Origin: Bacteroidota bacterium | Lineage (GTDB): Bacteria > Bacteroidota > Bacteroidia > CAILMK01 > JACPUW01 | DNA: 35,377 nucleotides | Direction of reading: 5' to 3' | Assembly (NCBI GenBank): GCA_020437725.1 | Contig: JAGQWA010000002.1 | Location: forward strand, 1 to 35,377 | Shown here: positions 1,812-21,018 of the stretch, one piece after another | How the letters are laid out: each line of letters starts with the position of its first letter | How positions within the stretch are numbered: the first letter of the stretch is position 1 | Translations under genes and position numbers: made by a program | The notes under the pieces: generated by a model | Told to the model about the DNA's origin: nothing | Databases searched by the model: none | Seen by the model: only the letters and a program-made list of their open reading frames with translations

Positions 1812-3044
1812 ATGAAAAATCTAATAATATTAGGAGCAGGTACGGCAGGAACCATGATGAGCAATCATCTACACAAACGTTTACCGGCAGATTGGAAAAT
1901 AACCATAGTTGATCAACGTACTGAGCATTATTACCAACCCGGTTTTCTATTTGTGCCTTTTGGCATTTATGAGCCCGAAGAAATTGTGAAGCCCATTTCT
2001 AAATTTATTCCAAAAGAAGTTGATTGGCTACAAATTGAAGTAGATAGAATTGATAAAGATACTGACACGGTTTATCTTAAAAACGGCGATTCTTTACCCT
2101 ATGATGTTTTGGTAATTGCCACAGGAAACGACATTGCGCCAGAAGAAATTGAAGGCATGAGCGGCGAAGGTTGGCATAAAGACATTTTCGACTTTTATAC
2201 TCTAGAAGGAGCCACTAAGCTTCATCAAAAACTCAAAGATTTTGAAGGTGGAAAGGTGGTAGTTCACATCTGCGAAATGCCCATAAAATGCCCTGTTGCA
2301 CCATTAGAATTTGCTTTTTTGGCCGATGCCTATTTCGAAAACCGTGGAATTAGAGATAAAGTTGATTTAAGCTTTGTTACACCTATGAGTGGGGCATTTA
2401 CCAAACCAAAGGCCACCGAAAAACTCGATTATCTTCTTAAAGAAAAGAACATAAACGTTGTGCCTGACTTTAACATTGAACGAGTTGACAACAACGAAAA
2501 AAAGATTTATGATTATGCTGGGCAAGAAGTAGCTTATGATTTGCTTATTACTACACCCACTAACATGGGTTCAAAGGCCATTGAGCGTTCAGGTTTTGGC
2601 GATGAATTGAACTATGTACCAACCAACAAGGCCACGTTACAAACCAAGGTAAAAGACAACATTTTTGCTATTGGAGATGCCACCAATGTTCCTGCTTCAA
2701 AAGCGGGCTCGGTAGCGCATTTTGAAGGCGAAGTTTTATTAGAAAACGTATTAAACTATATAGAAGGCAAGCCTTTAAAAGAAGGGTTTGATGGCCACGC
2801 GAATTGCTTTGTAGAAACAGGCCATGGCAAGGCATTACTAATAGATTTTAATTATACCCATGAGCCTGTTACAGGCACATTCCCTTTTCCGGGTGTTGGC
2901 CCACTCAGACTTTTAAAAGAAAGTAGAATGAACCACATGGGCAAAATGGCTTTTAAGTGGATTTACTGGAACATGCTCATTACCGGAAAGCATATTCCTT
3001 TTATCCCAAACAAAATGCAATTAGCCGGTAAAAACTTTGATTAA
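1812..3044 (+). CDS. sulfide:quinone oxidoreductase-like NAD(P)/FAD-dependent oxidoreductase
   Basis: N-terminal Rossmann motif IILGAGTAGT and a second dinucleotide motif FAIGDAT. The Cys-containing blocks IKCPVAPLEF and HANCFVETG resemble SQR-family redox cysteines. The neighbouring genes are sulfur-relay genes. Confidence 0.8.
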   Translation: MKNLIILGAGTAGTMMSNHLHKRLPADWKITIVDQRTEHYYQPGFLFVPFGIYEPEEIVKPISKFIPKEVDWLQIEVDRIDKDTDTVYLKNGDSLPYDVLVIATGNDIAPEEIEGMSGEGWHKDIFDFYTLEGATKLHQKLKDFEGGKVVVHICEMPIKCPVAPLEFAFLADAYFENRGIRDKVDLSFVTPMSGAFTKPKATEKLDYLLKEKNINVVPDFNIERVDNNEKKIYDYAGQEVAYDLLITTPTNMGSKAIERSGFGDELNYVPTNKATLQTKVKDNIFAIGDATNVPASKAGSVAHFEGEVLLENVLNYIEGKPLKEGFDGHANCFVETGHGKALLIDFNYTHEPVTGTFPFPGVGPLRLLKESRMNHMGKMAFKWIYWNMLITGKHIPFIPNKMQLAGKNFD

Positions 3045-3091
3045 ACTAAATCTAACACACTAAAAAACTAACACGCTAATTCACTAGAAAC

Positions 3092-3400
3092 ATGGAAAAA
3101 ATAATAGCAAACCAAAGCATTAATGTAAACGACGAAGGTTACTTAACAAACCACTCGCAATGGAATAGGGAAATTGGCCATGCCATAGCCCAAGAAGAAG
3201 GTATTGAAATGACCGACCACCACTGGAAAGTGGTTGATTATCTGCAAGAACAGCATAAAAACGACGTGCCACTTACCATAAGAAGAGTGGGCAAAAGCGG
3301 TGTTGTAGATATTAAAGGGTTCTACGAATTGTTTCCAAAGGGACCGCTAAAAACCAGTAGCAAAATTGCCGGTATACCCAAACCTGCCAGTTGCATTTAA
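3092..3400 (+). CDS. TusE/DsrC/DsvC family sulfur relay protein (single-Cys, TusE-type)
   Basis: 102 aa. The motifs GYL..HSQWN, HWKVVDYLQE and the flexible C-terminal arm GIPKPASCI with a penultimate Cys are the family hallmarks. This is the only Cys in the protein; the second DsrC Cys is absent. Confidence 0.9.
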   Translation: MEKIIANQSINVNDEGYLTNHSQWNREIGHAIAQEEGIEMTDHHWKVVDYLQEQHKNDVPLTIRRVGKSGVVDIKGFYELFPKGPLKTSSKIAGIPKPASCI

Positions 3401-3425
3401 TTACTCAAAAAAATAATAAATTACT

Positions 3426-3917
3426 ATGTCTAAAGATCCACAACCATATGGCGATGTAAGCAAAATGATGATCATTTTGTCAAAAGCCACCATAGATAAT
3501 GTTTATGCGTGTTTCATTTTGGCCAATGGTGCCAGAATGGAAGGCATTGAAGCTGAAATATTCTTCACCTTTTTTGGGCTCGAAGCCGTTAACAAAAAGA
3601 AGTTGAACCATTTAAAAGTAGCCACGGTAGGCAATCCTGCCATGCACATACCCACTATGTTGGGCGGTTTGCCAGGCATGGAATCTATAGCCACCAATAT
3701 GATGAAAAAAGAAATGGAGAAGCTTGATATTCCACCAGTTGATGAGTTTTTGGAAATACTTTCGGCTTCGGGCGTAAAACTTTGGGGTTGCAAATTGGCC
3801 ATGGAAATGTTTCACCTTGAGCGCGAAGATTTGCTTGACGAACTTGACGGTATTTTAACCGTTGGCGATTTTTATAAAAGAGCTGATAGGGAGGGTACGC
3901 ATATGTTGTTTATATAA
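3426..3917 (+). CDS. DsrE/DsrF/DrsH-like family protein
   Basis: 163 aa. MMIILSKATIDNVYACFILANGA ... GVKLWGCKLAMEMF matches the DsrE-like fold pattern as I recall it. It lies 25 nt downstream of the TusE-like gene. Confidence 0.8.
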   Translation: MSKDPQPYGDVSKMMIILSKATIDNVYACFILANGARMEGIEAEIFFTFFGLEAVNKKKLNHLKVATVGNPAMHIPTMLGGLPGMESIATNMMKKEMEKLDIPPVDEFLEILSASGVKLWGCKLAMEMFHLEREDLLDELDGILTVGDFYKRADREGTHMLFI

Positions 3918-3964
3918 GGCATGAGACAAGAAAATAATGGTTAGAATAGACTTTCTTTGCCTAC

Positions 3965-4783
3965 ATGTCTCAACTGCCGCCATTAAGTAAAATGGTTAAA
4001 CCTGCACTTGCTACATTTACCCGTAGCAAACAGGTGCCTAAACAAGGCGTGCACGCCAAGCAGTACTTTAATAATGTTTATATAGAACATGAAAAGTTGG
4101 AGGCTTTTAAAGCGTATTTTGGTTTTGAGCAAGAAATTCCGCTAGCCTATTTGTATTTACTGGCACAGCGAGCACAGGCGGCATTTATGTTAACCAAAAG
4201 TTATGGCTTGCCCATTCCAGGTACAATTCATCTTAATAACCAGCTAAAACAAACGGCGGTGGGCAAAGTGCACGAACCTTTTGACCTTAGGTTAACTTGC
4301 TCAATTGCTTATAAAGACGTTGGTTCATTACACCCTAAGTTTTTGGTTGAAATTTACCAGAACGGACAATCTGTAGCCGAATGCGAAAGCCATTATTTGG
4401 TTAAAAGAAAGTCGAAAAACAAAGGCACGAAGCGCGAAAAGCCTATTCCAAAAATTTCACTTGCCGAATTTGAAGAAACTTGGCATTTACCCAAAGATAT
4501 AGGGAAACAATATGCCGAAGTTTCTAATGATCACAACCCTATTCACACTTCGAAAACAGCTGCCAAACTTCTAGGTTTTAGAGCACCAATTGCGCAGGGT
4601 TGGTGTGTGGTGAGCAAGGCTATAAACGCCATTGAGCGTTCAACCCAAAAAAATATAACAAGCATAAACGTTGGTTTTAATGAACCTGCTTATTTACCAA
4701 GCACCATAGAGTTTTTGTTAGATAAAAAGGAAATTGAATTAGTAACTGATGGCAAGTTGGTTTTGGCAGGTGAGTTTACTTAA
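3965..4783 (+). CDS. MaoC-like (R)-hydratase / hotdog-fold dehydratase family protein
   Basis: The C-terminal half carries the hydratase-2 motif YAEVSNDHNPIHTSKTAAKLLGFRAPIAQG. The N-terminal half looks like a degenerate second hotdog. Confidence 0.75.
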   Translation: MSQLPPLSKMVKPALATFTRSKQVPKQGVHAKQYFNNVYIEHEKLEAFKAYFGFEQEIPLAYLYLLAQRAQAAFMLTKSYGLPIPGTIHLNNQLKQTAVGKVHEPFDLRLTCSIAYKDVGSLHPKFLVEIYQNGQSVAECESHYLVKRKSKNKGTKREKPIPKISLAEFEETWHLPKDIGKQYAEVSNDHNPIHTSKTAAKLLGFRAPIAQGWCVVSKAINAIERSTQKNITSINVGFNEPAYLPSTIEFLLDKKEIELVTDGKLVLAGEFT

Positions 4784-4841
4784 TAATGGTTGAAATAGTG
4801 CTTACACATTAGTCATACTTTCGCAATAGAACAAAACAGCA

Positions 4842-5294
4842 ATGGCAATGGATTTAACTTGTAGCGTAGATATAAATGCTTCAGCAGAAAAAATTTGGAG
4901 CATTATAACCAATATTGACAATTGTGCAAACACCATTTCGGGTATTAATTCGGTTGAAGTATTAGAACGACCAGCAAGCGGAGTAGTTGGTTTAAAGTGG
5001 AAAGAAACCCGCACCATGTTTGGCAAACAAGCATCAGAAACCATGTGGATTACAGAAGCGGTAGAGAATGAATTCTATAAAACCCGCGCCGAGAGTCATG
5101 GCATGATTTACGAAACCAAAATGGCCATTGCCAGCAATGGAGATAGCTGCGAATTAAGCATGTCTTTTGGTGGAACACCACAAACGGGCATGGCCAAGTT
5201 TATGATGTTTCTTACTGCCAAAATGATGAAAAAAGCAACGGTTAAAGCCTTAACCAAAGACCTTAATGATATTAAAACTGCGGCCGAAAGCTGA
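4842..5294 (+). CDS. SRPBCC (START/polyketide-cyclase-like) family protein
   Basis: About 150 aa. The N-terminus INASAEKIWSIITNIDNCANTISG is typical of SRPBCC ligand-binding proteins. Confidence 0.7.
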   Translation: MAMDLTCSVDINASAEKIWSIITNIDNCANTISGINSVEVLERPASGVVGLKWKETRTMFGKQASETMWITEAVENEFYKTRAESHGMIYETKMAIASNGDSCELSMSFGGTPQTGMAKFMMFLTAKMMKKATVKALTKDLNDIKTAAES

Positions 5295-5312
5295 ATTTAC
5301 TCCAACTTTGGC

Positions 5313-5347
5313 TCGCTTAATCATTAATTTTTTGCCACTTTAAGCGA
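5313..5347. terminator. hairpin between convergent genes (8-bp stem)
   Basis: tcgcttaa (5313-5320) pairs with ttaagcga (5340-5347) around a 19-nt loop containing T6. It lies between the SRPBCC stop (5294) and the TonB-receptor stop (5458). Confidence 0.3.
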
Positions 5348-5365
5348 CTTATAACAACTCTATAT

Positions 5366-5402
5366 CTCGCTCAAACTACACTTTTTTAACACTTTGAGCG
5401 AG
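5366..5402. terminator. hairpin between convergent genes (10-bp perfect stem)
   Basis: ctcgctcaaa (5366-5375) pairs with tttgagcgag (5393-5402) around a 17-nt loop. There is no flanking U-tract, so this is only a candidate bidirectional terminator. Confidence 0.35.
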
Positions 5403-13711: not shown

Positions 13712-13726
13712 GCAAAGAAACAGGTT

Positions 13727-13811
13727 TTGTTACAGATACAGGGTAAATAGAGCTGAATCTTGTTACAGATACAGGGTATTTTTAGCCATTTTTTGTTACA
13801 AATACTGGGTA
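13727..13811. repeat. three 19-bp direct repeats at exact 33-bp spacing upstream of the ATPase gene
   Basis: ttgttacagatacagggta occurs at 13727-13745 and identically at 13760-13778. ttgttacaaatactgggta (2 mismatches) occurs at 13793-13811. Each unit contains the internal tandem TACAG-a-TACAG. Confidence 0.85.
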
Positions 13812-13964
13812 AACAGAATGCCAATTTTACCTTTCAAAGGTTTAAACAGCTACATTTTTGACCAAAAATCAGCTGGAAAATCAAGATTTCAATGAAAAAT
13901 TTTAAGATTAAAATTTGCCATGCACCCCACCAATAATTTTACACATATGAGTTGCCCTAACTAC

Positions 13965-14016: not shown

Positions 14017-15090
14017 ATGAACAATAAAAACAATCTCTTAGACGGTGTAAAAGAAGCCGTTATTCAACATACAGGCGAGGTAAAAATGCTCAGCGAAATG
14101 GCGCGAAATACGAGCCTAAGCTTAGTTGACAGAGTTGAAAGTTTTGAAGACATTATTAGTTTAGAAGTTGGTGATACGAATCTAACTCGTGCCAGAGCCC
14201 TTGAGCGCGAATACAACATAAGGCAGATTTATATTAAGTACGAAGGCAATAACCCTTCGGGCACGCAAAAAGACCGAATTGCTTTTGCACAGGTTTTAGA
14301 TGCGCTACGGCGTGGCTATACTACTATGGCATTAGCCACTTGCGGCAACTATGGCGTGGCTTGTGCCAATGCGGCCTACTTGGCTGGCATTACCTGCAAG
14401 GTTTATATGCCGGCGTCATACCATTCTAACCGGATTAAGGAAATTGAAAGTTTTGGTGCCGAATTAATTCGTTTAGATGGCAGTTACGAAGACGTGGTGG
14501 CTAAATCGAGCCAGATTGCGCAAGAAAATGAATGGTACGATGCCAATCCTGGTGGTGCAAATACGCCCATGCAAATTGCAGCATACGCCGAAATAGCCAA
14601 CGAAATTTACGACCAACTGCGCGATGCTCCTAAATTCTTGGCTTGCCCAGTTTCTAATGGTACCGTTTTGGCTGGCATTTATCGCGGCTTTGTGTCGTTG
14701 TATAAACGCGGAAAAACTTCAAGAATTCCAGTTTTTGTGGCGGGCTCTTCGGCCAATAAAAACCCCATTATTTCTTCGTTTAAAAAAGGCCTAGAAAGCT
14801 GCGAAGACATTGACCCTAAAAAAATTAAGGAAACAGTCATAAATGAAGCACTCATTAACTGGCATAGTTTTGATGGCGAAGAAGCGCTATATGCCTTGCG
14901 CCAAACCAATGGTTATGCATCGCACGTAACCGATAAGCAACTTAAAGAAATGAGCAGCTATTTGCACAAAAAAGAAGGCATGCGCATTTTACCGTGCTCA
15001 TGCGCTGGGCTTATTGCTTTACTTGATGTACGCAAAGAAAAAAATCTAATAAACGACCGCTTTGTAGCCGTAATTACGGCTAAATACTAA
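14017..15090 (+). CDS. PLP-dependent enzyme, threonine-synthase/tryptophan-synthase-beta fold (fold type II)
   Basis: YIKYEGNNPSGTQKDRIA resembles the ThrC-type PLP-lysine motif (F-E-G-x-N-P-T-G-S-F-K-D-R). About 357 aa. First gene of the operon. Confidence 0.8.
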   Translation: MNNKNNLLDGVKEAVIQHTGEVKMLSEMARNTSLSLVDRVESFEDIISLEVGDTNLTRARALEREYNIRQIYIKYEGNNPSGTQKDRIAFAQVLDALRRGYTTMALATCGNYGVACANAAYLAGITCKVYMPASYHSNRIKEIESFGAELIRLDGSYEDVVAKSSQIAQENEWYDANPGGANTPMQIAAYAEIANEIYDQLRDAPKFLACPVSNGTVLAGIYRGFVSLYKRGKTSRIPVFVAGSSANKNPIISSFKKGLESCEDIDPKKIKETVINEALINWHSFDGEEALYALRQTNGYASHVTDKQLKEMSSYLHKKEGMRILPCSCAGLIALLDVRKEKNLINDRFVAVITAKY

Positions 15091-15101
15091 TAAAAAAAAT
15101 C

Positions 15102-16163
15102 ATGACAAAACCATCTATTGACGGCAATGCCATTGTGTATGCCAATAATGCCTTTAACACCCCAAATGGCAAAACCGCACATGGCCTGGTGCGCTTTACC
15201 GAACGCTTTAATGTAGTGGCAGTTATAGATGAAAACTACGCTGGCCAAGATGCTGGCAATGTGCTTGATAGCAAACTAAATGGCATTCCTATTTTTAGTA
15301 GTTTAACCGAAGCTGTAAAACATGTTGAAGCCAACAATTTTGTAATTGGTTTGGCGCCCGATGGCGGAAGACTACCCAATGAAGCCCGAGCAACCATAGC
15401 ACAAGCGCTTGAGCTTAAAATGAACATAACTAGTGGCCTTCACGACTTTTTATACAAAGACGAGCATTTAATGCAATTGGCTTCGCAAAATGGCTGCACC
15501 ATTAGAGATGTTAGAAAAACACCAGATAGAGATCAACTTCACTTTTTTGAAGGAAAAATTGAAGAAGTTGATTGCCTAAACATTGCTGTTTTAGGAACCG
15601 ATTCGGCTATTGGAAAGCGTACCACCGCTTGGATTATTGTGCACGGATTTAGAAATGCCGGGCTAAAAGCCGAAATGATTGGCACAGGCCAAACCGCCTG
15701 GATGCAAGGTGCCAAATACAGCATGATTATGGACAGCTGCATAAACGATTTTGTTTCGGGCGAAATAGAACATGCCGTTCACGAAGCTTGGAAAAATGAA
15801 AAACCCGATTTAATTGTAATAGAAGGACAAGGCAGTTTAATGAACCCTGCCTACCCCGGTGGTTTTGAAATTTTAGCTGCAGGAAGACCTGATTTTGTTA
15901 TTCTTCAACACGCGCCAAAACGAGTTGAATACGATGGTTTTCCAGGTTACAAACTGCATTCAATTAAAGAACAGATTAATGCCATTGAAGTAATTTCTGG
16001 CAAAAAAGTAATAGCCATTACCTTAAACCACGAAGAAATGAAACCTGAAGAAATTGAACCTACCTGCCAGCAAATTACTCAAGAAACAGGCTTGCCTGCT
16101 TTCGATGTGCTGGCTCATGGTTCTGAAGCTTTGGTTCAACTTCTTAAATCGCATATAAAGTGA
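15102..16163 (+). CDS. DUF1611 domain-containing protein
   Basis: The blocks NGKTAHGLVRF, VVAVIDENYAGQDAG, GIPIF, IGLAPDGGRLP, VLGTDSAIGKRTT, VIEGQGSLMNPAYPG and ITLNHEEM follow the conserved DUF1611 pattern as I recall it. The gene is 11 nt from the upstream gene. Confidence 0.8.
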   Translation: MTKPSIDGNAIVYANNAFNTPNGKTAHGLVRFTERFNVVAVIDENYAGQDAGNVLDSKLNGIPIFSSLTEAVKHVEANNFVIGLAPDGGRLPNEARATIAQALELKMNITSGLHDFLYKDEHLMQLASQNGCTIRDVRKTPDRDQLHFFEGKIEEVDCLNIAVLGTDSAIGKRTTAWIIVHGFRNAGLKAEMIGTGQTAWMQGAKYSMIMDSCINDFVSGEIEHAVHEAWKNEKPDLIVIEGQGSLMNPAYPGGFEILAAGRPDFVILQHAPKRVEYDGFPGYKLHSIKEQINAIEVISGKKVIAITLNHEEMKPEEIEPTCQQITQETGLPAFDVLAHGSEALVQLLKSHIK

Positions 16164-17665
16164 CTCGGTTAGCAGACTTTTTGGTTATTGATACCTTAAA
16201 AATTAGCAACCTGGTAATAAAACCCAAACGGGTATCAGCTGATTATACAGTTACCAAACCAGATGGTTCTATTGCCACCAATACGCTCTTTTATACCTAC
16301 TCAGAAAAGCTGTTTACCAAAAGCCAAGACGATAAAAACTTGGCGAGCATGATGGTGGCGCAAGTAGCCTTTAACTATGGACTATTCTGCAAAACCATTG
16401 AGTTTGACGGATATTTTGATGCCACTGACCAGGCCTTTATTCAAAGCATGATAGAGAATACGAGCAGAGAAATTATAACCAATAAGCTTCTGGTTGAAAA
16501 CCCTTTTCTGCTGCCGCCTTTTGATGGTTTGCAAATTGAACCCCAAAAGAAATATACCCAAGCCCAAATAGTATTTACCCAAAAAGCCATTTCCACCAAA
16601 AAAGCATTTTTTGAAAATACTGAACCCAATTTCAATAAATACGCCATTTTAAGCAGCGGCGGAAAAGACAGTTTGCTCAGCTACGGACTAATAAAAGAGT
16701 TTGCTGAACCACATCCCATTTTTGTTAATGAAGCGGGCCGGCATTGGTTCACTGCTATTAATTCATACCGACATTTTAAGGAGCACGAACCCAATACAGG
16801 CAAAGCCTGGTGCAATAGCGACCGTATTTTTAACTGGATGCTAAAACAGCTTCCGTTCATTAAACCCAATTACGCTTCTATTAGAGCAGATATTTACCCA
16901 GTACGACTTTGGACAGTTTCGGTGTTTTTATTTGGTGTTTTACCCATTGCCTTAAAAAAAGGACTTGGAAATATTATAGTTGGCGATGAGTATGATACTA
17001 CAGAAAGAAAGACCACCAGCGGCATTACGCATTATAGTGCGCTATACGATCAGAGTAAGTATTTCGACAATGCCTTAACACGCTACTATCATAAAAAAGG
17101 ATGGAACTTGGTTCAATTCTCCATGCTCAGAAGCATGTCAGAGTTATTAATAATGAAAGTACTGCTTAAGCGCTACCCACATTTGCAAATGCACCAAACC
17201 AGTTGCCACGCCGCCCACGAGCACGAAAAACGCATGTACCCCTGTGGCAATTGCGAAAAATGTAGGCGAATTGTGGGCATGATAACTGCATTGGGCGAAG
17301 ACCCAAGAAACTGCGGCTATACTTCAACCCAAATAGACAAGGCATTAGAAAAACTGGCAAATGCCAGCGTAAAACAAATAGGATCAGACGCGGCACAGCT
17401 TTATTATTTATTAGTTAAAAACCAGAAAATACCCCTTAACCAATTCACCCAAAAATTGGCTAAAGAACACCCAAGAGTAATGCAATTGCGATTTGAAAAT
17501 GAGCGCAGTAATTTACAAGATATGCCGGCTCATGTACGCAAACCATTGTTCTCTATTCTAAGCCAATACAGCAATGGCGCCGTTTCTTTATCTAATAAAG
17601 AGTGGGCACCAGTAGAAATTACCGATACTTTTCTTAACCAAACAGCATATAAATTCAATGATTAA
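16160..17665 (+). CDS. PP-loop (adenine nucleotide alpha-hydrolase superfamily) ATPase, QueC-like Zn-Cys cluster, unknown N-terminal domain
   Basis: SGGKDS at residues 166-171 (nt 16655-16672). C-x12-C-x2-C-x2-C at C349/C362/C365/C368 (SCHAAHEHEKRMYPCGNCEKCRR). The GTG start overlaps the upstream stop (GTGA). I recognise no motif in the first 160 aa or so. Confidence 0.65.
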   Translation: MTRLADFLVIDTLKISNLVIKPKRVSADYTVTKPDGSIATNTLFYTYSEKLFTKSQDDKNLASMMVAQVAFNYGLFCKTIEFDGYFDATDQAFIQSMIENTSREIITNKLLVENPFLLPPFDGLQIEPQKKYTQAQIVFTQKAISTKKAFFENTEPNFNKYAILSSGGKDSLLSYGLIKEFAEPHPIFVNEAGRHWFTAINSYRHFKEHEPNTGKAWCNSDRIFNWMLKQLPFIKPNYASIRADIYPVRLWTVSVFLFGVLPIALKKGLGNIIVGDEYDTTERKTTSGITHYSALYDQSKYFDNALTRYYHKKGWNLVQFSMLRSMSELLIMKVLLKRYPHLQMHQTSCHAAHEHEKRMYPCGNCEKCRRIVGMITALGEDPRNCGYTSTQIDKALEKLANASVKQIGSDAAQLYYLLVKNQKIPLNQFTQKLAKEHPRVMQLRFENERSNLQDMPAHVRKPLFSILSQYSNGAVSLSNKEWAPVEITDTFLNQTAYKFND

Positions 17666-18455
17666 CAACATTAAGAAAGACTATTTGTGGGAAACCCAAA
17701 CATGGAAAGAAATAGAAGAGCGACTCAAAATAGTTGATACCGCCATTTTACCATGTGGTGCCATTGAACAACATGGCCCGCATTTGCCAGTTGATGTTGA
17801 TTACTATGATGCCGCCTATATGGCCAAATGTGTTGCCGAAAAATGTGCTGATCCAAAACCATTTGTTCTACCACCAATTCCATTTGGGGTTTCTTACCAT
17901 CATAGCGCATTTAAAGGCACCATTAGCGTTACAAACAATGCACTATCGGCCTTTATTTATGATATAGGAATGAGCCTGGCACATAATGGAATAAGGAAAA
18001 TAGTAATACTAAACGGCCACGGCGATAATAAACCCACACTTACTTATGCCGCACAAATGATTAACCGCGATGCCAAAATTTTTGTTTGCGTTGACACCGG
18101 CGAAACCAGTGATGTTGACCTTTATAATCTCATTAATACGCCTAACGATATTCATGCCGGCGAAATTGAAACCAGTACCACTTTAGCACTGCGCCCCGAT
18201 TTGGTGAACATGGATTTAGCCGTTGACGAAACCCTAGATTTAGATAATGAATATCTAGATTTTACATCTGACCGTGGAGTTAGTTGGTATGTGCATACGC
18301 AACGTATTTCAAACTCAGGCGTAATGGGCAATGCTAAAATTGCCACCGCCGAAAAAGGAAAGCTAATGTGGGATATTTCAATAAAAAAAATGGTAGAATT
18401 TGTTGAGAGCATTAAGAACACTCCACTAGAAAAACTCTACCAAAACCGCTATTAA
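17658..18455 (+). CDS. creatininase family metal-dependent amidohydrolase
   Basis: LPCGAIEQHGPHLPVDVD, ILNGHGDN and IHAGEIETS are the family metal-ligand blocks. The start overlaps the upstream stop by 8 nt (ATGATTAA). Confidence 0.9.
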   Translation: MINNIKKDYLWETQTWKEIEERLKIVDTAILPCGAIEQHGPHLPVDVDYYDAAYMAKCVAEKCADPKPFVLPPIPFGVSYHHSAFKGTISVTNNALSAFIYDIGMSLAHNGIRKIVILNGHGDNKPTLTYAAQMINRDAKIFVCVDTGETSDVDLYNLINTPNDIHAGEIETSTTLALRPDLVNMDLAVDETLDLDNEYLDFTSDRGVSWYVHTQRISNSGVMGNAKIATAEKGKLMWDISIKKMVEFVESIKNTPLEKLYQNRY

Positions 18456-18457
18456 TT

Positions 18458-19522
18458 GTGATACTTTCTAAAGTTGAATACTTTGAGCTAGAACTTGAAA
18501 TGGCTAGCGGCTACACCATTGCTTATGAAACCATAAGCCACGCCAAAAATGTAGTGCTAAAACTAACAACCAACACTGGTTTGGTAGGTTGGGGATGTGC
18601 CGCACCCGACCAAGAAATTACCCACGAAACCAGCCAAACTGTAATAAATAATCTTGAACAGCATATAATACCAATGCTACAAGGGCAAGACCCTTTTCAA
18701 TTGGCATTGTTCAATAAAAAATTAAGAGATACTGGCATAAAAATGCCCTCAGCAATGGCAATGACCAATATTGCCCTGCACGATCTTTTGGCTAGAAAAG
18801 CCCAACTACCACTCTATAAACTAATGGGTGGCTTTAGAAATAAAATTGCTACTAGCATAACAATAGGAATAATGCCTTTGAACGATACCTTGGCATTAGG
18901 AAAAGAATATTGGCAACAAGGCTTTAAAATAATAAAACTAAAGGGTGGAATTGAAGTAAATGAAGACATTGAAAAGATTTTTAAACTTAAAGAAGAACTA
19001 GGTTTTGAATTAATTCTGCGGTTTGATGCCAACCAAGGATACACAGTAGAAGACTCAATAAAATTTATTGAAGCGACTAAACAAGCTGAAATTGAGTTAT
19101 TTGAGCAACCAACTGCCTTTGATAATCTGCAAGCACTAAAGCAGGTAACTAACAGAGTATCAGTTCCTGTAATGGCCGACGAAAGTATTCGCTCACTTAG
19201 CGATGTTTATCATCTTTCTAAACACGATGCCAGCGACATGATAAACATTAAAATAATGAAAGTAGGTGGGCTAACTGAAGCGGCTCACATTAATTCAGTG
19301 GCCAAAGCAGCTGGCATGGAAGTTATGGTGGGATGCCTTGATGAATGTGCACTCGGTATCTCAGCCGGATTGCATTTTGCACTGAGTAGGCCAAACGTAG
19401 AATTTGCTGATTTAGACGGTCATTTAGACTTTACAAACGACCCTTTTAAAAATCTTTTTCAACTAAAAGATGGCTGGCTTTACCCATCTGAGCATGATGG
19501 TTTGGGAAAAGTGGACTTTTAA
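18458..19522 (+). CDS. enolase-superfamily dipeptide epimerase-type enzyme (L-Ala-D/L-Glu epimerase family)
   Basis: IIKLKGG, LRFDANQGYT, ELFEQP, VMADES, INIKIMKVGG and MVGCLDE match the catalytic Lys / metal ligand / second Lys layout of the MLE subgroup. The GTG start is 2 nt after the upstream stop. Confidence 0.85.
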   Translation: MILSKVEYFELELEMASGYTIAYETISHAKNVVLKLTTNTGLVGWGCAAPDQEITHETSQTVINNLEQHIIPMLQGQDPFQLALFNKKLRDTGIKMPSAMAMTNIALHDLLARKAQLPLYKLMGGFRNKIATSITIGIMPLNDTLALGKEYWQQGFKIIKLKGGIEVNEDIEKIFKLKEELGFELILRFDANQGYTVEDSIKFIEATKQAEIELFEQPTAFDNLQALKQVTNRVSVPVMADESIRSLSDVYHLSKHDASDMINIKIMKVGGLTEAAHINSVAKAAGMEVMVGCLDECALGISAGLHFALSRPNVEFADLDGHLDFTNDPFKNLFQLKDGWLYPSEHDGLGKVDF

Positions 19523-19536
19523 ATATCAAAGCAAAA

Positions 19537-19905
19537 ATGAAAGCAATCATTATCATTATTTTACTTTTAATTAGTAATACTTTTATGACATTAGCTTGGT
19601 ACGGACACTTGAAGTTTGCTGACATGAAATGGTTTAGCAAACTTGGTTTAGTATCAATTATTCTTATAAGTTGGGGCATTGCCTTATTTGAATACATCTT
19701 TCAAGTTCCTGCCAATAAATATGGCTTTAATCAAAATGGTGGGCCTTTTTCTCTAATTCAACTAAAAGTAATTCAAGAAATAATTACCCTTGTGGTTTTT
19801 GCAGTGTTCACATTATTGGTGTTTAAATCAGAAACATTTAGAATAAATCATTTAATCTCATTTACATTAATTGTAGGTGCTGTTTACTTTATGTTCAAAA
19901 AATAA
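19537..19905 (+). CDS. DMT-superfamily small membrane protein (DUF486)
   Basis: 122 aa with 4 TM helices. NTFMTLAWYGHLKF ... ISWGIALFEYIFQVPAN ... QLKVIQEIITL matches the DUF486 pattern as I recall it. Confidence 0.8.
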   Translation: MKAIIIIILLLISNTFMTLAWYGHLKFADMKWFSKLGLVSIILISWGIALFEYIFQVPANKYGFNQNGGPFSLIQLKVIQEIITLVVFAVFTLLVFKSETFRINHLISFTLIVGAVYFMFKK

Positions 19906-20903
19906 TTAATTCTAAACTCAGAAGGATTACAACCTTTCCAACGTTTAAAACTGCGATTAAAAGCGGCCGCATCTGTATAACCCAATTGAAAAGCAATTTC
20001 AGTAATGCTTAATTCCTGTTGTTGTAGAAGTCGAATGGCAAAATCTTGTTTCACTTCATCAACCAGCTGCTTAAACACCGTGCCTTCGTTTTTTAATCTT
20101 CGCTGAAACGTTCTTAAGCTCAGGTTTAAATGTGCGGCAACATCATTTATTCCTGGAAAATGGTTTTGCCCTAACCTTATAATCGTTTGCCTAACTTGAT
20201 TAGAGAATTGGGCCTTTTTTCTTGATTTTGAAACTTCTTCAGCATGCTGCACCAAAAGTCTAAGTAATTGATAGTTGGCCGTTATTATTGGCGCTTCAAC
20301 ATGTTCTTTACTTAAATAAATGGCCAGTTCATTTTGGTTGAAAACCACTGGGCATTTAAAAACCCTGTAGTATTCGGTAGCTGAAGCAGGCTCAGGCCAT
20401 GTAACATGAATTTTTTCAGGGCAATGCTTATTAAATGTAAGGCTTAAATATTCCCTTATAGTAAAAGCGATAAGGCCTTCAGTGGTTTGCCTAAAGGCCG
20501 ATTCTGATTCAGTTGGCCAATTGGCAATGGGTTCTATGAGCAATTTGTACCCATTAGGAATAGCAACCAACCGCATGGGCAAATGACTACAACCCAAATT
20601 GGCATATTGGCAACAAAACTGCAGGGCTTGTTCAACCGTGGTACTACTTTGGGTTATTTGTCCTATTAATCCTGAAGCTGAAATATTCATGCTTTCAGCA
20701 CCGTGAAGCCCCAAAAATTCGTCATCAGTTTGGGTTTGGGCCAATTCCATAACCGCATTGTAAGCAGGGCTTTCAATGGTGGTATTCTCTAGGAGAAGTT
20801 CTTCTTTGGTTAAACCCGTTGCCACAATCAAATCTTGCTTATTGGCACCTTGCTCAACGGCAAATTCTATAATGTTGTAAACAAACCTTCCATTAAAAGC
20901 CAT
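19884..20903 (-). CDS. AraC family transcriptional regulator (N-terminal ligand-binding domain + C-terminal HTH)
   Basis: The C-terminal dual HTH reads INDVAAHLNLSLRTFQRRLKNEG ... ITEIAFQLGYTDAAAFNRSFKRWKG. The track ORF starts at the TTG at 20942; the ATG at 20903 (MAFNGRFVYNIIEF) is more likely. The 3' end overlaps the DMT gene by 22 nt in convergent orientation. Confidence 0.9.
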   Translation of the reverse strand: MAFNGRFVYNIIEFAVEQGANKQDLIVATGLTKEELLLENTTIESPAYNAVMELAQTQTDDEFLGLHGAESMNISASGLIGQITQSSTTVEQALQFCCQYANLGCSHLPMRLVAIPNGYKLLIEPIANWPTESESAFRQTTEGLIAFTIREYLSLTFNKHCPEKIHVTWPEPASATEYYRVFKCPVVFNQNELAIYLSKEHVEAPIITANYQLLRLLVQHAEEVSKSRKKAQFSNQVRQTIIRLGQNHFPGINDVAAHLNLSLRTFQRRLKNEGTVFKQLVDEVKQDFAIRLLQQQELSITEIAFQLGYTDAAAFNRSFKRWKGCNPSEFRINYFLNIK

Positions 20904-21018
20904 GCATCGAATGTAGGTAAATCCAGTGGCACCAAATGACAAGTATTTGTCATTCTACGCCAAATGAGTTGGCTGTTCTCGCTTCCACATTTGTATCATC
21001 AAATTAAAACACAAACAA

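Follow-up and report, generated by a model that had tools for sequence, protein, structure and literature searches.

A conserved, uncharacterised five-gene cassette with a QueC-like PP-loop protein, a DUF1611 protein and a dipeptide epimerase

Which task brings together, in one row of genes, a pyridoxal 5'-phosphate (PLP) enzyme, a DUF1611 protein, a large PP-loop protein resembling QueC, a creatininase-family hydrolase and a dipeptide epimerase? The question is raised by contig JAGQWA010000002.1 of a Bacteroidota bacterium (assembly GCA_020437725.1), of which a stretch of 35,377 nucleotides, hereafter the window, was analysed. The genes concerned are termed g1 to g6 here, in the order in which they are read (Table 1). 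An original prediction, made from the letters of the window, had described them as a six-gene operon with its own transporter and a convergent AraC-type regulator, and had proposed that they build or salvage a non-canonical or D-configured amino acid, an N-acyl amino acid or a modified dipeptide, as a candidate for a previously undescribed system. We show here that g1-g5 constitute one conserved, translationally coupled unit. This cassette is real, robustly conserved and uncharacterised, and its function is one that we infer in what follows.

Conservation and extent of the cassette

A genome scan seeded with g3 yielded 16 loci, from Flavobacteriaceae, Bacteroidales and one Desulfobacterales metagenome-assembled genome, to which the best 80 loci of a metagenome scan were added, all of them at least 47% identical. 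The contexts of distant g3 homologues come from 12 single look-ups, and gene order was compared across loci by tblastn with the proteins of the window. Genes g1-g5 are complete and collinear in 44 of the 46 loci that have enough flank on both sides, so that the arrangement lies far beyond chance and the predicted neighbourhood is indeed conserved in other genomes. Altogether the cassette was found in about 100 loci across phyla, in the same order and with overlapping or near-abutting junctions (medians across related loci of +5, -4, -11 and +1 nt). One or two of its members are absent in individual loci (L026/L029, L056, L058 and L085), and in a few Flavobacteriaceae loci an insertion separates g3 from g4, of about 800 bp in L011 (9449-10263) and about 150 bp in L003 (9479-9636), at a place where other loci show an overlap. 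Most of the carriers are marine or sediment genomes. They include marine Bacteroidota, Calditrichota, Marinimicrobia and Desulfobacterales, and archaea carry the core in reduced form. Cultured strains are among them, namely Croceitalea dokdonensis, Lutibacter citreus, Draconibacterium mangrovi, Flagellimonas meishanensis and Ascidiimonas aurantiaca, which makes the cassette directly testable.

The sixth gene and the regulator do not share in this conservation. Neither g6, which encodes a small membrane protein (DMT_6 PF04342, 137.9 bits), nor the AraC-type open reading frame (ORF), which combines Arabinose_bd and HTH_18 domains and misses the cutoff of a QhpR-like model (175 bits against 250), has a homologue beside the cassette in any of the 112 other loci. 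Both are also absent in the closest relative (L113, 74% identity), in which the gene after the epimerase is CorA. What is conserved is therefore g1-g5, and the DMT gene and the AraC gene are local additions. Of the six-gene operon that had been proposed, the first five members stand as a collinear unit and the sixth falls away, and with it goes the suggestion that the DMT protein is the system's own transporter; the AraC regulator likewise lies outside the system. In this genome only, g6 may export or import the compound. The flanks of related loci keep no transporter, no regulator and no known RNA element; they vary from locus to locus and contain genes for a quinone oxidoreductase, an extracytoplasmic function (ECF) sigma factor, CorA, an aldose epimerase or DapA-like proteins.

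Within the window, the ORF list reproduces exactly the six co-directional genes that had been described, with junctions of +11, -4, -8, +2 and +14 nt from g1 to g6, as well as the overlap of the convergent AraC-type gene with the 3' end of the block. The products are named by NCBI as PLP-dependent enzyme, DUF1611 protein, hypothetical protein KDC92_00245, creatininase family protein, dipeptide epimerase and DMT family protein. The G+C content of the g1-g6 block (0.35-0.43) is equal to or slightly above that of the remaining window. Consensus scans, in which Bacteroidota promoters are not modelled, counted 16 promoter-like sites within the block against 21.1 expected and 10 terminator-like sites against 7.9 expected, so that neither kind is in excess there. 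No tblastn match to g3 that would point to a mobile or plasmid origin was found in 72,556 plasmids. Searches of Rfam for a riboswitch or leader upstream of the cassette gave nothing in the window at E values up to 1 and nothing in eight related loci at the gathering threshold.

Upstream of g1 lies a divergent gene for an ATPase with AAA_14 and DUF4143 domains, which is matched by PDC-S01 (9e-168), a family that PADLOC lists as a candidate single-gene defence, and is not kept beside the cassette in other loci. The intergenic space between this gene and g1 holds three direct copies of TTGTTACAGATACAGGGTA at an exact spacing of 33 bp (0, 0 and 2 mismatches; about 0.02 chance matches expected). 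As an operator of the cassette the repeat was rejected, since none of the 112 other loci compared contains it; we regard it as a window-specific putative operator or repeat, outside the features of the cassette.

Table 1. Coordinates of the genes and features discussed, in positions of the window
Feature	Position	Strand	Basis or remark
Divergent AAA_14 + DUF4143 ATPase gene, 458 aa	12335-13711	-	
Triple direct repeat	13725-13817		
g1, PALP-fold PLP enzyme, 357 aa	14017-15090	+	ORF list
g2, DUF1611 protein, 353 aa	15102-16163	+	ORF list
g3, QueC-like PP-loop protein, 501 aa, GTG start	16160-17665	+	ORF list
N-terminal domain of g3	16160-16609	+	
PP-loop motif S166-G-G-K-D-S171 of g3	16655-16672	+	PP-loop alignment and invariance
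Cys cluster C349-x12-C362-x2-C365-x2-C368 of g3, presumed metal site	17204-17263	+	Invariance
g4, creatininase-family metallo-amidohydrolase, 265 aa	17658-18455	+	ORF list
g5, dipeptide epimerase (enolase superfamily), 354 aa, GTG start	18458-19522	+	ORF list
g6, DMT_6/DUF486 small membrane protein, 122 aa	19537-19905	+	ORF list
AraC-type regulator, 352 aa, convergent	19884-20942	-	22 nt overlap with g6

The QueC-like protein and its partners

What g3 may do is central to the question, and sequence profiles give little guidance. The protein has no match in Pfam, NCBIfam or the sequences of the PDB, and its 2654 homologues are all labelled hypothetical; at 50% identity, the family has 358 representative clusters. 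The 120 best matches listed share 59-74% identity, and the organisms named among the homologues listed belong to Bacteroidota, Calditrichota and Marinimicrobia. The Pfam QueC model (PF06508) gives no match to g3 at its gathering threshold and only weak ones to 3 of 21 relatives, with an E value of 0.057 at best; a further weak match among the relatives is to DUF6395 (best E value 0.0015), and both models are uninformative. The family is not described in a 2026 survey of the QueC superfamily.

Conserved residues and the predicted fold point more clearly in one direction. The SGGK[DE]S PP-loop (S166, G167, G168 and S171) is nearly invariant in the family down to 19-30% identity and aligns to the PP-loops of MJ0690, TtuA, MnmA and Cap9. 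The four cysteines C349, C362, C365 and C368 (SCH...PCGxCxKC) are invariant in 21 diverse members, and N72 and F76 of the N-terminal domain are invariant across family members as well. An AlphaFold (AF2) model of g3, with a predicted local distance difference test score (pLDDT) of 90.7 and a predicted template modelling score (pTM) of 0.90, is divided into an N-terminal domain (about residues 1-150), the PP-loop core, and the Cys4 cluster with a C-terminal helical region. Its best Foldseek matches in the PDB are QatC (3e-5), Cap9 (6e-4) and QueC of B. subtilis (3bl5, target-normalised TM-score 0.71), which bears out the earlier reading of a QueC-like protein with a four-Cys cluster. The predicted structure gives g3 a QueC-type PP-loop fold and marks it as a putative ATP pyrophosphatase of an undescribed family. 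Modelled alone, the N-terminal domain (pLDDT 91.9) adopts a beta-beta-beta-alpha-beta-alpha arrangement; it has no structural match in the PDB with an E value below 1e-3, and weak matches give it a faint resemblance to an RNase H-like or actin-like half-domain.

Enzymes of the QueC family adenylate a carboxylate and pass it to ammonia, in the case of QueC, or to the amine of a protein N-terminus, in the case of Cap9; the recognition of 7-carboxy-7-deazaguanine (CDG) by QueC involves a Tyr/Asp pair, which is Y129/D131 in B. subtilis (PMC13279940). By analogy, g3 probably uses ATP-dependent adenylation of a carboxylate followed by the attack of an amine. It differs from QueC in being twice as large, with an unmatched N-terminal domain and a C-terminal extension, and in the spacing of its cysteines, which is x12 where the canonical C(x)8CxxCxxC motif of QueC, which binds Zn, has x8 (PMC13329287).

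The same cluster could also speak for a different chemistry, in which g3 transfers sulfur by means of an iron-sulfur (Fe-S) cluster bound by its cysteines, as in TtuA or non-sacrificial LarE, or forms a nitrile as in the second step of QueC, while the PLP enzyme performs C-S or C-C chemistry and the product is a thio- or cyano-amino acid. MnmA, TtuA, LarE and the nitrile synthetase ArtA, together with GMP synthetase, are among the weaker Foldseek matches of g3, its PP-loop aligns to those of TtuA and MnmA, its four cysteines are invariant, and LarE uses three cysteines for a [4Fe-4S] cluster (PMC13329287). However, the CxxCxxC spacing follows the Zn motif of QueC, the top structural matches are QueC, Cap9 and QatC, and no gene for a sulfur carrier, a cysteine desulfurase or a rhodanese is conserved nearby. 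We consider such a sulfur-transferring or nitrile-forming role improbable.

Gene fusions give a second view of g3 as a presumed amine-conjugating enzyme with regular partners. A fusion of g3 with the creatininase-family hydrolase is present in P0121 and L015, and independently in P0171 and P0176, which are 28% identical; among 61 loci, about 8 have it; a fusion of the DUF1611 protein with g3 occurs in P0125 and one of g3 with a class I methyltransferase in P0124. Thus g2, g3 and g4 have been physically linked in evolution through gene fusions.

Distant contexts reduce the set of partners further. The order PALP-DUF1611-g3 is found in a probable archaeon with Tsr3 as a neighbour (L020/L021, g3 about 30% identical), and with a GNAT gene added at its end in L109 (35%). 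In L022 (33%) the arrangement is PALP-DUF1611 ... g3 with a GNAT gene nearby, and in L110/L111 (32%) a divergent enolase gene stands before it, as enolase ... PALP-DUF1611-g3, with a convergent GNAT gene. The order is DUF1611-g3-enolase in L112 (39%), and an archaeon recognisable by L21e, Rpb4, Pus10 and PolB (L105, 35%) has DUF1611-g3 only. A GNAT gene is thus near in three lineages without a creatininase (L022-L024, L109 and L110/L111), and L110 and L112 have epimerases orthologous to g5, enolases that share 42-43% identity with it and keep every catalytic residue. On account of these contexts, L105 and L112 included, the persistent pair is DUF1611 plus g3; the PLP enzyme usually joins it and the epimerase often does, and the fifth function varies by lineage between a creatininase, a GNAT and a methyltransferase. 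The protein set that had been claimed therefore holds for near relatives, which keep g1-g5, whereas the distant core is DUF1611 plus g3 and the creatininase is replaceable.

Two of these distant loci hold further observations. In L018, where g3 is 28% identical, the genes after a g3-creatininase fusion encode a 421-aa protein without annotation and a member of the CofD/UPF0052 family (2905-5373; also in L019), and the usual partners are not there; the upstream side of this locus ends at the contig end. In L020, an ORF upstream of PALP-DUF1611-g3 (62-649) contains a motif '...TFEATHHGP...', which is reminiscent of an archaeal-type D-aminoacyl-tRNA deacylase, in a single case judged by eye in a probable archaeal locus.

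Since QatC and Cap9 are the closest structural matches of g3, the cassette might also act on proteins or peptides: g3 would conjugate a protein N-terminus, as Cap9/QatC, and g4 would be a peptidase, as MftE, in a defence system or in a pathway resembling those for ribosomally synthesised and post-translationally modified peptides (RiPPs). The best NCBIfam match of g4 is in fact the RiPP peptidase MftE, and immediately upstream in the window is a gene that PADLOC ranks as a defence candidate. That gene is, however, not kept in other loci, the PLP enzyme and the dipeptide epimerase are small-molecule enzymes, and neither a conserved small ORF nor a partner protein accompanies the cassette. A 53-aa ORF before the PALP gene in L109 was considered as a precursor peptide or carrier and discarded, as it is not kept in L020 or L022. 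None of g1-g6 matches the PADLOC models, those for QatABCD and the type IV cyclic oligonucleotide-based anti-phage signalling system (CBASS) included, and the neighbours are metabolic genes, not QatA/B/D or CdnD/Cap10; a defence system was rejected on the first of these grounds. The lack of PADLOC matches and of a conserved partner ORF weakens the idea of protein or peptide modification to the point that we consider it highly improbable.

Candidate substrates and a possible pathway

If g3 joins a carboxylate to an amine, its partners may tell which molecules are concerned. The first gene encodes a PALP protein (187 bits in Pfam) whose closest solved structures are threonine synthase (ThrC) entries (1.5e-23). 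It passes the cutoff of the NCBIfam model PRK06381, named 'threonine synthase' (395 bits against 266), but misses that of TIGR00260 thrC (102 bits against 167) and stays far under those of all other ThrC models. Its lysine motif is GTQKDR, with TQKDR where ThrC has SFKDR, and orthologues in distant clusters keep TGTQKDR. In pairwise alignments, the NP(H/Y)R(L/I)EGQK loop of the ThrCs 1uim, 6cgq and 2zsj corresponds to TPMQIAAYAE in g1. The P-x-R-x-E-G-Q-K loop of ThrC has a role in phosphate binding; because this loop with its conserved Arg is missing, g1 probably does not use O-phosphohomoserine. The comparison of active sites does not support the name of PRK06381, and we place g1 in a ThrC-like subfamily of the fold-type II PLP enzymes; it is probably no genuine threonine synthase. 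Through proteins of this type, the name of the model may spread misannotation.

The product of g5 belongs to the muconate lactonizing enzyme (MLE) subgroup of enolases (MR_MLE_N and MR_MLE_C in Pfam), and its best PDB match is the dipeptide epimerase 3jva (2.3e-63), followed by 3rit and 1jpm. The residues K160-x-K162, D190, E216, D241, K265 and A317-D-L-D320 are invariant, even where g3 is only 28-39% identical, and D318-L-D320 aligns with the DxD of 3jva, 3rit, 1jpm and 2zad, whereas the N-succinyl-amino-acid racemase 2p88 has ELT. In common with the dipeptide epimerases (YkfB 1jpm/1tkk, E. faecalis 3jva, M. capsulatus 3rit and T. maritima 2zad), g5 thus has the KxK, the D/E/D ligands, the second catalytic Lys and the DxD, and these alignments show it to carry the full predicted catalytic set together with the motif of free-amine dipeptide epimerases. 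The DxD of dipeptide epimerases binds the N-terminal residue by its free alpha-ammonium group, and it favours a free-amine dipeptide over an N-acyl amino acid as the substrate of g5. In YkfB of B. subtilis, the substrate carries a Glu side chain that is bound by Arg24 of the 20s loop. An invariant Glu24 of g5 aligns to this residue, and for this reason the C-terminal residue of the substrate is probably cationic or amide-bearing; the substrate as a whole would be dipeptide-like, with a free amine and a C-terminal residue other than Glu. The enzyme further differs from the L-Ala-D/L-Glu epimerase (AEE) in missing the cutoffs of the AEE models NF041118 (229.5 bits against 500) and PRK15129 (86.8 bits against 343) and in being always inside this cassette. 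It also misses the equivalog cutoff of DgcA, the N-acetyl-D-Glu racemase (NF042940, 133.8 bits against 400).

On these two enzymes hinges the plainest explanation of the locus, namely that housekeeping genes without a common purpose are neighbours here, for instance g1 as the threonine synthase of the cell and g5 as an L-Ala-D/L-Glu epimerase that serves the recycling of peptidoglycan. The PRK06381 pass of g1 and the annotation of g5 as 'dipeptide epimerase' would fit, but g1 misses TIGR00260 and has no ThrC loop, g5 has Glu at the position of Arg24, and the strict order and overlapping junctions in about 100 loci across phyla are joined by gene fusions. Synteny and fusions exclude unrelated housekeeping genes for practical purposes, and we find the idea hardly credible.

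The second gene encodes DUF1611_N (PF17396) and DUF1611_C (PF07755), a Rossmann-like N-domain followed by a P-loop C-domain. Its PDB matches are 2g0t (2.4e-40), 2obn and 7xrj, which have in common with it GTDSAIGKRTT, a GTDxxxGK P-loop, and IEGQGSL. The one characterised relative, DgcN, reportedly N-acylates D-amino acids. Against the NCBIfam model of DgcN (NF041892) g2 scores 155.3 bits and misses the equivalog cutoff of 480, and we regard it as a paralogue of this acetyl-CoA-dependent N-acetyltransferase of D-Glu and not as its orthologue. A metagenomic survey describes dgcN as the key gene of a racemisation pathway that is irreversible and costly in energy, and reports that the gene is frequent in Bacteroidia and Marinisomatia (PMC12363236). 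These are the same groups that carry the g1-g5 cassette, and since g2 remains so far below the DgcN cutoff, metagenomic surveys of D-amino-acid metabolism may count the DUF1611 protein of the cassette as dgcN.

The hydrolase g4 matches Creatininase (PF02633) over profile positions 2-238 of 238, with 230.6 bits against a gathering threshold of 31.3, and finds creatininases in the PDB at about 4.5e-20. The metal and catalytic motifs of the family, which had been named in the original prediction, are present. Its likeness to creatininase, MftE, ArfB and IolN extends over the full length, but it lies under every equivalog cutoff (MftE 129.3 bits against 172, creatininase 114.8 against 235, IolN 92.6 against 245, ArfB 24.6 against 180) and is often fused to the QueC-like enzyme.

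Taken together, we tentatively favour the view that g1-g5 is a biosynthetic cassette for a small amino-acid conjugate with an amide bond and a D-configured residue. Biosynthesis is preferred over nutrient catabolism because no transporter or regulator is conserved, because the fifth enzyme behaves as a variable 'tailoring' function and because two steps depend on nucleotides; likewise, flanks that are unrelated between loci and keep no transporter, regulator or riboswitch argue for a biosynthetic rather than a nutrient-uptake locus. That the pathway is an undescribed one, in which a QueC-like small-molecule amide ligase works in a complex with the DUF1611 protein and the creatininase-type hydrolase and makes a dipeptide-like metabolite with a D-residue, is a possibility that we hold with considerable doubt. 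Such a metabolite might be an osmolyte, a signal or an antimetabolite. The original proposal that a D-configured amino acid, an N-acyl amino acid or a dipeptide is built or salvaged stays plausible.

In a first step, the ThrC-like PLP enzyme would make or supply an amino acid outside the canonical set, through chemistry of the beta/gamma-replacement or elimination type. The DUF1611 protein might then contribute an acyl transfer or a P-loop-dependent ligation, while the QueC-like enzyme would activate a carboxylate by adenylation for capture by an amine; acting as a complex, the two could yield an amide-linked, transiently protected, dipeptide-like conjugate. The creatininase-type hydrolase would remove the protecting or leader acyl group and thereby free the alpha-amine, after which the epimerase would invert the alpha-carbon of the C-terminal residue, whose side chain would be read by Glu24. 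A GNAT or a fused methyltransferase in place of the hydrolase may be an alternative tailoring on the same scaffold.

The same enzymes can also be read in the direction of breakdown, as an extended irreversible route of the DgcN/DgcA type for the stereo-inversion or catabolism of a D-amino acid or a D-residue dipeptide from marine organic matter or peptidoglycan. Here the DUF1611 protein and/or the QueC-like ligase would conjugate the substrate, g5 would epimerise it, g4 would free the L-form, and the ThrC-like PLP enzyme would deaminate or convert it. According to the names in NCBIfam, a DUF1611 protein paired with a member of the enolase superfamily is the signature of the DgcN/DgcA pathway; the cassette resides mostly in marine and sediment genomes, and the fusion of ligase and hydrolase fits a cycle of conjugation and release. 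Yet g2 and g5 score far under the DgcN and DgcA cutoffs, g5 has the free-amine DxD and no features of the N-acyl type, no transporter or regulator is kept, the variants in which a GNAT or methyltransferase occurs without the hydrolase suit tailoring better than release, and two nucleotide-dependent steps would be costly for catabolism. We judge this route rather unlikely.

Several points nevertheless weigh against the biosynthetic view. The direction, synthesis as opposed to breakdown, and the order of the steps are both what we infer. An inversion cycle of ligation, epimerisation and hydrolysis would account just as well for the fusion of a hydrolase with an ATP-dependent ligase, and to our knowledge the only characterised member of DUF1611 acts in catabolism. 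The four cysteines of g3 could hold Fe-S, as in the sulfur-transfer enzymes TtuA and LarE, and not Zn. The substrate proposed for g5 leans on the roles of the DxD and of Arg24 in known dipeptide epimerases. Lastly, because the archaeal L105 has only DUF1611 and g3, the chemistry of the PLP enzyme and the epimerase may not be obligatory.

The interest of the cassette lies first of all in the g3 family, whose 2654 homologues have no model or annotation and which here sits inside a very rigidly conserved small operon. Solving the cassette would tell what this new QueC-like branch of the PP-loop enzymes does, would give DUF1611 a second function and a distinct clade of dipeptide epimerases its specificity, and would probably bring to light, in microbes of the sea and of sediments, a new metabolite with a D-amino acid or a new route of stereo-inversion. 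If the amide-ligase pathway is true, it would give the g3 family and a second DUF1611 branch their first functions.

Comparison with known systems

How, then, does the cassette relate to what has been described? In Pfam and NCBIfam searches all six family assignments of the original prediction hold, and the profile hidden Markov models do not move any of the proteins to unrelated families. Its members miss every equivalog threshold that is tied to a characterised function, those for DgcN, DgcA, AEE, MftE and creatininase included, and on these scores the cassette belongs to no characterised pathway, in line with what had been proposed. The single cutoff that is passed is that of PRK06381, by g1. 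The accessible literature, itself incomplete, holds no description of the system, which is absence of evidence only for the claim that it is previously undescribed. In composition, the cassette is a metabolic operon of known superfamilies plus one unannotated enzyme family.

With QueC, Cap9 and QatC, the product of g3 shares the fold of the PP-loop core, the SGGxDS motif and a four-Cys cluster of the CxxCxxC type. It differs from them in its surroundings, as it stands amid amino-acid enzymes and without deazapurine, tRNA or defence genes.

A functional analogy, and only that, can be drawn to two other systems. In the synthesis of the osmolyte N-acetylglutaminylglutamine amide (NAGGN), the PP-loop amidotransferase AsnO works with Ngg, an acetyltransferase/ligase, and MurD2/MurL follow a logic of ligation and subsequent epimerisation. 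In these cases a small modified dipeptide or a D-residue is made by N-acylation and the ATP-dependent formation of an amide, to which MurL adds an epimerisation that comes after ligation; the enzymes are, however, not homologous to those of the cassette beyond the PP-loop superfamily.

Closest of all is the D-glutamate pathway of DgcN and DgcA, in which the same two families are found in one operon and with which the cassette probably has in common the logic of conjugating an amine and then epimerising. In the cassette, by contrast, the pair g2/g5 is split by the QueC-like enzyme and the creatininase-family hydrolase, a ThrC-like PLP enzyme comes first, and g5 carries the free-amine DxD of dipeptide epimerases. 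By analogy, the logic of the cassette is most like that of DgcN/DgcA, with conjugation before epimerisation, combined with the chemistry of QueC/Cap9.

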